From sequence record PQ657803.1: a stretch of 64,000 nucleotides of DNA; one strand, written 5' to 3'. Positions 9,980-11,040 of this stretch are shown here, piece by piece (the stretch's first letter is position 1; the number at the start of each line of letters is the position of its first letter). Under the pieces are notes generated by a model that did no database searches, was not told the DNA's origin, and worked only from the letters and a program-made list of their open reading frames with translations. The position numbers and the translations under genes are program-made. This DNA comes from Klebsiella phage Roth37.

Positions 9980-11040
9980 ACTTCTAGCCTGTGTAAGGGT
10001 GCTATAAATAGTGGTTATGCTTTCGCTCGGGGTGACTCCGGTCATGACTCCATTGTCACATGCTTACACAGGGTATACGAGCTTCCGCGGAGCTGTATAC
10101 TCAACCGTGTCCCACTTAGGTCTCGGAGCGACCGCTTGTACGAACGGTTATCCGAATACTCTTTCCCACTTAGAGTCAGGCGAGATCCCACCTCGCCAAA
10201 GTTCATACGATCATCATGCCGTATTTAAGGACTAGTTTTGGCACTTCTGGAGAGCCATCCTCCACGCGGTCTGTTAAAATCACACCTCCGAATTTTCGAT
10301 GTGAAGTTTGGCTATCTCTAGCCTTCCAGCGTATGGTCGCTTCGCACCTGCCACTCTTACGTTCAAATCGGTTTAGGTGGTGGCAACCCTCCGAAGTTCC
10401 GAGTTTGGTTGAGGCCGTCAGGTTTCCTCGTGGTTTAGCTGTTTCGTTCCCGCGAGTCTCCCAAGTCTTTCCCTGGGAGGGGAGGAGGTACTCCAGCAGC
10501 GAGTGGTTCGACAATAGAACCATCAGTTATCTAGCTCTTTCCGACCGCAGGATTCGAACCTGCACTTTCCGCATCTGGGGATAGCTCCCCGCGTGCAGAA
10601 GTCTACCAATTAACTTAGGACGGCAGTGTTGCTACATAAGTGATTTCGACACCCCACTATGGTGGCAATAACCAGCACCAGACGCTATACACATGTCTCC
10701 AATTTGCAACCTAGGCAGGTCAGCGTGGGAGCTATACGAGTTTCTCAGGCTCAGCTCCCCACCTCTCCGGCAGGCCACGCACCATGCTTCATTCTGGTAG
10801 AACAAGTTAAAGTGAGATTCCACCATTTTTCTACAAATTAGAAGAAGAGTTTAGGAGAGTGGTTTCAGACGCCACATTTTACAAGAGATCTCTAACCTAC
10901 GCCCGTCCAATACGCTCCCTGGCCGGTATCCGGACTGGATGCACGAACTTTGTCAGGTGATCACTCTTAACTCACCGATTCTATTCAACGAATCTTAATG
11001 ATCGACGAGTCTTACATTAAAACAAGTTCAGCGTAATCGG
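9980..11040 (-). other. about 1.06-kb ORF-free, GC-richer, highly structured region transcribed from the strong promoter at 11062-11105; contains a tRNA-type T-arm minihelix (10540-10563) and nested hairpins
   Basis: Only short mutually overlapping ORFs on both strands. gcagg-attcgaa-cctgc T-arm, GGGGA-tagc-TCCCC and CTGCAC..GTGCAG helices. No complete cloverleaf could be closed. Confidence 0.3.

Follow-up and report, generated by a model that had tools for sequence, protein, structure and literature searches.

A probable 1.29-kb structured non-coding RNA gene in Klebsiella phage Roth37, orthologous to the stable RNA gene rnaX of T5

Introduction

What does a long stretch of phage DNA encode when it stands behind a strong promoter and contains nothing beyond short, overlapping open reading frames (ORFs)? 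A locus in Klebsiella phage Roth37 (record PQ657803.1) raises this question. We analysed 64,000 nucleotides (nt) of this phage, hereafter the window, and count all positions from its first letter. Between the gene for a cell-wall hydrolase (11083-11544, minus strand) and an ORF of 108 amino acids (aa; 9429-9755, minus strand) there are 1327 base pairs (bp) with short ORFs alone, which overlap each other and lie on both strands. A first-pass annotation made from the letters alone had pointed out this ORF-poor gap and proposed three readings for it, namely one or several non-coding RNAs, an origin-like structured DNA region, or a degraded gene.

Here we report that the region is, with a probability that we put at about 85%, the gene for a highly structured non-coding RNA of about 1.29 kb, the Sugarland-type orthologue of the RNAX of phage T5. 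The 1.06 kb singled out at first (9980-11040) lies within this gene, but the limits have to be widened to 9773-11062. The case is built on homology and synteny with T5, on a substitution pattern that is not that of coding sequence, and on predicted base pairing that is kept by compensatory changes in several domains.

Results

The region is homologous to rnaX of T5 and BF23

The GenBank record of T5 (AY543070) carries a misc_RNA feature of 719 nt at 40848-41566, annotated as 'rnaX: RNAX, stable RNA with unknown functions', which lies behind promoter P16-17 and directly before tRNA-Arg; the record of BF23 (AJ604530) carries the same annotation over 784 nt. Both records bear out the earlier remark that T5 makes stable RNAs other than tRNAs. 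By blastn, the tRNA-shaped core of the Roth37 region matches T5 41408-41539, inside rnaX, and matches are likewise found inside rnaX of BF23 and of DT571/2. A covariance model of the central stem with its tRNA-shaped module, which we call R1, scores 153 bits in the window, 173 in T5 and 175 in BF23. It makes a single strong match in the window; the five others stay below 21 bits, all fall in the tRNA cluster and engage only the tRNA-shaped part of the model. The motifs of the 3' domain and the terminal hairpin described below are also common to the window and to rnaX of T5 and BF23.

The position agrees as well. Over the region examined, the window and Klebsiella phage Sugarland (Demerecviridae, Sugarlandvirus) share 99.9% identity, and the element keeps its location in the relatives, where it follows the cell-wall hydrolase cluster and precedes tRNA-Arg(UCU) at the tRNA island's end. 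The tRNA-Arg(UCU) always follows the RNA, either directly or after one to four small ORFs. A stretch of 0.65-1.4 kb occupies this place in Eps7, oselot, Eos, vB_Kpn24-P3 (Kpn24-P3 below), phiLLS, Sds2, TrudiGerster, the Pantoea phage AAS21, the Pectobacterium phage DU_PP_V and the Erwinia phage KEY. There it is unannotated, or covered by small 'hypothetical proteins', or given calls such as 'tRNA-OTHER', 'tRNA-Sec', 'tRNA-Ser', 'tRNA-Pro' or 'trna-Undet'.

Sensitive blastn matches 522 phage records, from phages of Salmonella, Escherichia, Klebsiella, Shigella, Citrobacter, Yersinia, Pantoea and Pectobacterium. From GenBank and from IMG/VR loci we extracted 32 distinct full-length copies of 650-1429 nt, which form about 18 clusters at 97% identity. 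A metagenome scan with the motif of the central domain D3 gave 10 true matches and no new diversity; eight further copies came from metagenomes, and all of this material lies near known clusters. As a handle on distant relatives, the cell-wall hydrolase proved too widespread in unrelated phages, and a locus search with a single protein returned the same phage only. In the Vibrio phage pVp-1 (Ermolyevavirinae), no homologue of D3 was detected and the equivalent gaps are filled with tRNAs; for this reason the family seems to be confined to enterobacterial T5-like phages, namely Markadamsvirinae, Sugarlandvirus and Mccorquodalevirinae, nearly all of which have it. A blastn search with the whole RNA found no homologue in 5,426 complete Escherichia coli genomes, and we rejected host origin or host mimicry on this ground.

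A YqeY-like gene that neighbours rnaX in T5, labelled 'tRNA amidotransferase', was considered as a partner and dismissed: the gene is absent from the window and therefore is not an obligate partner. It gave no Pfam match at E <= 0.01, and PHROGs repeats the same label. Our literature search found no paper on the structure, distribution or function of RNAX and no expression data for it; older reports in subscription journals or in Russian, by the laboratory behind the T5 and BF23 records, may exist. Judged by homology and synteny, the RNAX unit of the window belongs, as an extended form of Sugarland type, to an RNA family that is known but essentially uncharacterised.

The region does not evolve as coding sequence

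To characterise the substitutions, the RNAX region was aligned to that of Kpn24-P3, with which it is 83% identical over the aligned bases. The mismatches fall on the three codon positions in numbers of 70/59/75. In sharp contrast, the genes on both sides show clean coding signatures in the same phage pair, with 0/0/7 for the hydrolase and 5/4/23 for the 108-aa ORF and with no indels, against 17 indels in the RNAX region that are mostly not multiples of three. The comparison with Eos yields 109/118/134 for the RNAX region and 10/6/42 for the hydrolase gene. Across the family, stop-free stretches on the sense strand are mostly no longer than 60 codons, and no reading frame is open throughout. 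The RNAX region does not evolve as coding sequence.

This result bears directly on existing annotations. Sugarland and many relatives have 'hypothetical proteins' with ribosome-binding sites annotated over the RNAX gene; in the Sugarland record (MG459987.2), CPT_Sugarland_118 to 120 stretch across it at positions that correspond to window 9766-9981, 10203-10523 and 10632-10805 on the minus strand. The window itself has minus-strand ORFs of 71, 106 and 64 aa, which several GenBank records annotate as coding sequences. In Kpn24-P3 the three ORFs annotated in Sugarland turn into frame-shifted pieces, the 106-aa ORF into three fragments, and where they can be aligned the protein identity is 48-49%, below the DNA identity given above. 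Judging from these comparisons, the Sugarland annotations over RNAX are almost certainly spurious.

Predicted base pairing is maintained on the transcribed strand

The family alignment consists of near-invariant sequence blocks that alternate with variable or optional modules. As read from this alignment, the RNA is built of modules: every homologue examined has the 3' domain and the central stem, and the two 5' domains D1 and D2 are optional. In several of these domains, compensatory changes preserve the predicted pairing of the transcribed (minus) strand. RNA coordinates are given as r, which equals 11063 minus the window coordinate, and all features are collected in Table 1.

For the central domain D3, 98.1% of the cells of an alignment of 15 hand-picked sequences are paired, as against 28-43% when the partners are slid along the alignment. 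Double changes occur in 15 of its 29 pairs (0-7 with slid partners), and none of 500 shuffles reached the observed value. With 33 distinct sequences the figures are 99.0% against 23-44%, with double changes in 18 of the 29 pairs and again no shuffle out of 500 at the observed level; this larger alignment was fitted to R1 and is hence biased towards the model. Several D3 pairs alternate between U-G and U-A, with counts such as UG 19/UA 13 and UG 23/UA 9. Since exchanges between U-G and U-A are neutral solely in the RNA of the transcribed strand, the functional strand is the transcribed one. The domain is closed by GUGG (r406-409, 10654-10657), which pairs with CCAC (r630-633, 10430-10433); DU_PP_V has ACGG with CCGU at these positions. 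The CCAC belongs to CUAAACCACG, which is included in a 52-nt block identical in Eps7 and Sds2 (Table 1). Around this block, Sugarland-type and Eps7/Sds2-type sequences are only about 70% identical. The identity of the block would indicate either very strong constraint or a recent exchange of the module.

The 3' domain contains the invariant motifs AGUGGGAAA, GGAGUCAUGACC, CAUAACCAC, AGUCACCYUGACU and AACUGGAA. Among 12 relatives, 95.8% of the cells of its 64 predicted pairs are paired (37-49% with slid partners) and 17 of the 64 pairs show double changes (0-5 with slid partners), a level that again none of 500 shuffles reached. The 3' domain of the window, folded by itself, adopts the same architecture (z = -3.15). 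A long-range pairing between GGGGUG and CACCYU proposed by RNAalifold was not confirmed, one of its sides being invariant and AAS21 and DU_PP_V showing no clear retention. The thermodynamic z is -0.42 for r1-405, -2.69 for r404-889 and -3.15 for r890-1290, so that the many stable helices noted at first are borne out moderately by thermodynamics and strongly by comparison.

Two length changes were seen in individual phages. In K7PH164C4, a tandem duplication of 127 nt lies in the variable middle region of RNAX, homologous to window 10219-10345. The 3' domain of T5 RNAX carries an insertion of about 83 nt between direct repeats of about 22 nt (AGUCACCUUGAC-UAAACUGGAA).

Table 1. Features of the RNAX locus in the window and the evidence for each
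Feature	RNA coordinates	Window position	Strand	Basis or description
RNAX-family non-coding RNA gene, ~1290 nt		9773-11062	-	Homology and synteny with T5/BF23 rnaX; non-coding substitutions; covariation in four domains
Sigma-70 promoter		11069-11097	-	Promoter scan; 10/12 consensus positions plus TG
5' domain D1	r1-230	10833-11062	-	Closed by helix P1 in the minimum-free-energy fold
Optional domain D2	r231-405	10658-10832	-	Closed by UGGUGG/CCACCA; in some lineages only
Central domain D3	r405-566	10497-10658	-	12-bp covarying stem, tRNA-shaped module at its tip, then a hairpin
tRNA-shaped module		10539-10624	-	Rfam tRNA (RF00005), 35.1 bits; gathering score 29
52-nt block	r617-668	10395-10446	-	100% identical to Eps7 and Sds2 (blastn blocks)
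3' domain	r890-1251	9812-10173	-	Most conserved part of the family
Self-complementary hairpin loop CCGCGG		10085-10090	-	Loop census of 44 sequences; predicted hairpin
8-nt hairpin loop AGUCAUGA		10042-10049	-	Predicted in the consensus and in the window's own fold
Terminal 17-bp A/U-rich hairpin		9773-9811	-	3' end of the conserved unit; several G.U pairs, no U-tract

A tRNA-shaped module is embedded in the central domain

A minihelix of T-arm and acceptor type had been noticed at 10540-10563. This minihelix is real, but it belongs to a whole tRNA-shaped module, which sits on the covarying stem of D3. The module scores above the gathering score of the Rfam tRNA model, yet a scan of the whole window with default filters missed it. 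Its T-arm is canonical (GCAGG-UUCGAAU-CCUGC), its D-arm contains GG, and its acceptor stem of seven positions is not fully paired, with mismatches G1.A72 and U5.U68, the latter kept in most relatives. No CCA is encoded. In place of the 7-nt anticodon loop there is a 20-nt insert with a hairpin of its own, capped by GCUA, and the 'anticodon arm' of the relatives is a lineage-specific hairpin with a tetraloop cap.

ARAGORN makes no call at the module in the window; for the same element in relatives it reports Ser(act), Ser(aga), Leu(tag), Pro(tgg) or nothing. Since the assigned identity differs between phages, the module is in general not a decoding tRNA. In KEY (locus L067 3299-3373; MZ616364 64299-64371) its anticodon loop has the regular 7 nt and its annotation is tRNA-Pro(UGG), which suggests that the module descends from, or in KEY may still be, a real tRNA nested in a large RNA. 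Eps7 and Sds2 have replaced it by a branched element of about 45 nt that is not tRNA-like (CCAGA...UCUGG, with internal hairpins) and have kept the flanking stem and the rest of the RNA. Because both flanks of the module are locked in the 12-bp covarying stem, it is built into a larger fold. We infer that its role lies in structure or in processing and that it probably goes back to a nested tRNA; it may serve as an RNase P site.

In DU_PP_V (locus L011 2385-2529), R1 also made a weak full-length match (32.6 bits, E = 2e-8) to the tRNA-Arg with its flanks, and weaker full-length matches were found in two metagenome loci. The match hints that the tRNA-Arg of DU_PP_V may likewise be framed by a stem.

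The 5' domains covary and are optional

Helix P1 is formed by the first transcribed bases, r1-13, which pair with r218-230; the changes seen in its 3' strand replace A by G opposite U and keep the pairing. Inside D1, a hairpin CAGCG/CGCUG appears in DU_PP_V as CAGCA/UGCUG, a G-C pair having become A-U. The loop of this hairpin, GCCGAUU, has its pairing partner, AAUCGGU, about 55 nt downstream. At the third position of the resulting helix most phages have C-G, AAS21 and KEY have U-A and DU_PP_V has A-U; the occurrence of three different Watson-Crick pairs at one position supports a predicted H-type pseudoknot in D1. T5 and the shortest relatives lack D1 and retain P1 as a hairpin only.

D2 is present in the Sugarland-like phages, Kpn24-P3, Eos, Eps7, TrudiGerster and locus L024. 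Its closing helix covaries, reading UAGCGG/CCGCUA in Eos and CGAUGG/CCAUCG in Eps7, and double changes were found in 18 of 43 predicted pairs among eight sequences.

Two predicted hairpin loops are self-complementary and the 3' boundary is conserved

The 8-nt loop AGUCAUGA is identical in 44 of 44 distinct full-length homologues, with a flanking stem that varies between lineages. It includes the self-complementary hexamer UCAUGA and is closed by G-C pairs. The second self-complementary loop, surveyed in the same number of sequences, reads UCGCGA in 30, CCGCGG in six of Sugarland type and CGCGCG in T5, and six more have the four-base core CGCG. Between UCGCGA and CCGCGG, the outer U...A has been changed symmetrically to C...G.

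The motifs GGA, AGGA and GGAG, looked for as signs of a CsrA-type sponge, were not enriched over dinucleotide shuffles in four homologues, and this candidate function was rejected at that level.

The terminal hairpin is 92-97% identical between DU_PP_V and Klebsiella or Salmonella phages, whose remaining RNA barely aligns. It abuts tRNA-Arg in T5; in the window, 17 nt separate it from the start codon of the downstream 108-aa ORF. The hairpin has the look of a site for sequence-specific processing or protein binding at the unit's 3' boundary.

Transcription signal and neighbouring genes

All genes around the RNAX unit are oriented on the minus strand, and the unit lies at the upstream edge of an island of about 21 tRNA genes clustered at 898-9235. 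Its GC content is 0.495, compared with 0.451 for the whole window, and stands at the 98th percentile of windows of 1290 nt, in agreement with the higher GC reported at first. The T5-type promoter of that report also proved to be a near-consensus sigma-70 promoter, composed of a -35 element TTGCCT (11097-11092), a 17-nt spacer with an extended -10 TG (TGaTATAAT) and a -10 element TATAAT (11074-11069). The hydrolase gene reaches into this promoter with its 3' end. All relatives keep the -10 hexamer and the initially transcribed ATAAATT, and the homologous site is the annotated promoter P16-17 in the T5 and BF23 records. By analogy with the T5 promoter PN25, we take the A at about 11062 to be position +1. 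No terminator-like U run was found between the RNAX unit and the genes downstream.

The hydrolase gene matches Pfam Hydrolase_2. Downstream of the unit come ORFs of 108 and 58 aa, neither of which has an informative Pfam or PHROG family, and then a tRNA-Arg(UCU)-like gene at 9157-9235 (minus strand). This gene is 79 nt long, has about 18 extra nt between anticodon arm and T-arm, scores 33 bits in Rfam and receives no call from ARAGORN. Immediately downstream of it, at 8636-9145, lies a gene for an HNH endonuclease (Pfam HNH_3), which is absent from K7PH164C4; Kpn24-P3 has no such gene annotated at the corresponding place. Two genes upstream of the RNAX unit, a protein of 334 aa (11609-12613, minus strand) is annotated variously as metallopeptidase or exonuclease. 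It belongs to PHROG 255 'exonuclease' (E = 9e-58), and in Pfam it has a sub-threshold match to a 3'-5' exoribonuclease (Rv2179c-like) domain and nothing else.

Discussion

The non-coding RNA that had been named among several options is the reading that we favour, in the form of an orthologue of T5 and BF23 RNAX that evolves as a structured RNA on the transcribed strand. Several points weigh against it or narrow it. Thermodynamic support is weak in the 5' third, where z is -0.42. The covariation sample is small, with about 18 lineages at 97% identity, and its sequences are related by phylogeny. Some phages do without D1 and D2, and Eps7 and Sds2 have the tRNA-shaped module replaced; not every part is needed for the core function. 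The label 'stable' goes back to the GenBank notes for T5 and BF23 alone. As to self-association, the conserved palindromic loops are the sole basis of the idea, the second loop is absent in DU_PP_V, and 8-nt palindromes are not enriched in the RNA (4 observed, about 5 expected), for which reason the loops give no more than a hint.

Among the rival explanations is a long structured leader or spacer of the tRNA operon, whose folds would direct the processing or stability of the tRNA-Arg and the ORFs and have no later function. The constant presence of tRNA-Arg(UCU) next to the RNA, with no terminator in between, speaks for it, and so does the resemblance of the KEY element to a real tRNA-Pro, which would make its flanks tRNA-precursor sequence. 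A spacer, however, does not need 0.65-1.4 kb, nor a loop invariant in all homologues, a pseudoknot and compensating domain-closing helices. Moreover, conservation is independent of the immediate downstream neighbour (tRNA in T5, ORF here), and pVp-1 expresses its tRNA-Arg(UCU) without such a region. We consider this explanation very unlikely. The module might instead be a tRNA-mimic decoy that is released by RNase P and 3' trimming and titrates a host tRNA-binding enzyme or a tRNA-targeting defence nuclease, with the remaining RNA as its carrier. Its T-arm, D-arm and acceptor stem are well kept and its anticodon arm varies freely, as expected if decoding is irrelevant; furthermore, T5-like phages are described as using their own tRNAs against tRNA-cleaving defences in work cited in PMC10644984. 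Yet Eps7 and Sds2 dispense with a tRNA-like element at this place and keep the rest of the RNA, and conservation within the family is highest outside the module, which makes the decoy very unlikely.

The two remaining options of the first-pass annotation fare worse. That the region codes for protein, be it through the three Sugarland 'hypothetical proteins' or as a decayed larger gene, could draw on the minus-strand ORFs and their annotation in public records. The lack of third-position bias, the frame-shifting indels, the break-up of the 106-aa ORF, a protein identity below that of the DNA and the want of a frame open family-wide all contradict it, and substitutions that preserve pairing explain the conservation; we regard it as highly improbable. 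A DNA-level element (a replication origin, for instance, a signal for nicking or packaging, or a hotspot of recombination) would work through inverted repeats in the DNA itself. The region does hold many such repeats and several palindromes of 8 nt, and T5-type genomes have site-specific nicks, one of them annotated about 1 kb away in T5. That nick, however, lies outside rnaX, no iterons or direct repeats were found in the region, and conserved G.U pairs alternate with A-U or G-C, although they would be A.C mismatches on the complementary strand or in duplex DNA. The strand-specific character of these wobble-preserving changes leaves the DNA-level element with almost no probability.

How might such an RNA act? 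In the course of events that we envisage, RNAX would be made in large amounts early in infection from the strong promoter for host RNA polymerase, and the first bases of the transcript would form helix P1. It would share a transcript with the downstream ORFs and tRNA-Arg, from which processing would release it. In T5, the base after the terminal hairpin begins tRNA-Arg, and RNase P would therefore define the 3' end there by cleaving at the 5' end of the tRNA; in Roth37 the cut would fall near the conserved terminal hairpin, and RNase P possibly also cuts at the embedded module. The released RNAX would then act as an RNA and not as a leader or a tRNA.

[quoted passage not shown] HIV-1 genomes dimerise through self-complementary loops. 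Such loops are also among the contacts that build the cages of ROOL and GOLLD (PMC12286853). If RNAX is architectural, the tRNA-shaped module would be a structural elbow or a processing handle and not a decoder. Monomers of 0.65-1.4 kb could join via AGUCAUGA, the second, CGCG-type loop would add to the association in most lineages, and an RNA-only dimer, or a particle of higher order, would arise early in infection. It is conceivable, if rather unlikely, that RNAX is in this way a third, independent class of giant self-assembling phage RNAs beside ROOL and GOLLD.

RNAX of T5 is already on record, and the object is therefore not categorically new. It had been noted before as 'RNAX, unknown function' in two GenBank records only, and is mostly unannotated or mis-annotated elsewhere. 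What is new here is the conservation across the family, the proof that the region is non-coding, the multi-domain covarying fold with its predicted pseudoknot, the nature of the embedded tRNA-shaped module and the invariant self-complementary loop. In practical terms, the annotations of hundreds of Klebsiella, Salmonella and E. coli phages that are candidates for therapy are concerned, in which a non-coding RNA feature should replace spurious ORFs and calls of 'tRNA-OTHER/Sec/Ser'. Were RNAX of the GOLLD and ROOL kind, T5, a model phage of E. coli, would offer a tractable genetic system for such RNAs; otherwise RNAX would stand for a new functional class.

Among known systems, rnaX of T5 and BF23 is the nearest. 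The central tRNA-shaped domain, the 3' domain and the terminal hairpin are homologous, and the promoter type (P16-17), the strand and the position at the end of the tRNA island before tRNA-Arg(UCU) are the same. The RNA of the window, however, is nearly double the length of that of T5 (about 1290 against 719 nt): it has D1, D2 and longer inserts in the middle and in the 3' domain, and an extended hairpin where T5 has a short 'anticodon' stem. In addition, two ORFs separate it from the tRNA-Arg.

Infernal scans with the Rfam models, a check that the first-pass annotation had proposed, yielded tRNA alone, both on the window at the gathering score and, with E raised to 10, in the region, where the module is the match (Table 1); five diverse relatives scanned with E as high as 5 likewise gave no family except tRNA. 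We rejected transfer-messenger RNA (tmRNA), for which neither ARAGORN nor Rfam made a match and which has a tag-peptide reading frame and a tRNA-like domain built from its two ends, unlike a module that is internal and contiguous. Group I and group II introns and the other Rfam ribozymes were rejected too, as no catalytic-core model matched. A tRNA-like module within a long non-coding transcript is known from mascRNA in MALAT1. Similarly, the RNAX module lies inside a long non-coding transcript and could recruit RNase P; unlike tRNA and mascRNA, it has no anticodon loop or CCA, has two mismatches in the acceptor stem and varies in identity between phages.

Bacterial and phage RNAs that exceed 500 nt and have complex conserved folds are known in a handful of cases only, GOLLD and ROOL among them. 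Some representatives of GOLLD have a tRNA nested inside, and ROOL is about 580 nt long. Compared with ROOL, which is likewise phage-encoded near a tRNA island and has a pseudoknot, RNAX has conserved self-complementary loops too; it differs in its embedded tRNA-shaped module, in a Sugarland form of roughly double the size and in matching no Rfam model. GOLLD shares with RNAX the very large multi-domain build, the location beside tRNA genes and a conserved 3' region combined with a variable 5' region (PMC12286853). Between the two there is no detectable similarity in sequence or structure and no match to the Rfam model, and the host range differs, RNAX being found in lytic T5-like phages of Enterobacterales. 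Both GOLLD and ROOL oligomerise through kissing loops into RNA-only cages, ROOL with no known protein partner (PMC12286853). Those cages are held by kissing loops and A-minor contacts, whereas RNAX is known here from sequence, with the self-complementary loops as the one hint of assembly. The traits that RNAX has in common with them are its large multi-domain form, helices supported by covariation, a predicted pseudoknot and a phage-encoded locus beside a tRNA island. On this comparison, T5-like enterobacterial phages, T5 included, probably carry at a similar locus an RNA comparable in size and intricacy to GOLLD and ROOL.

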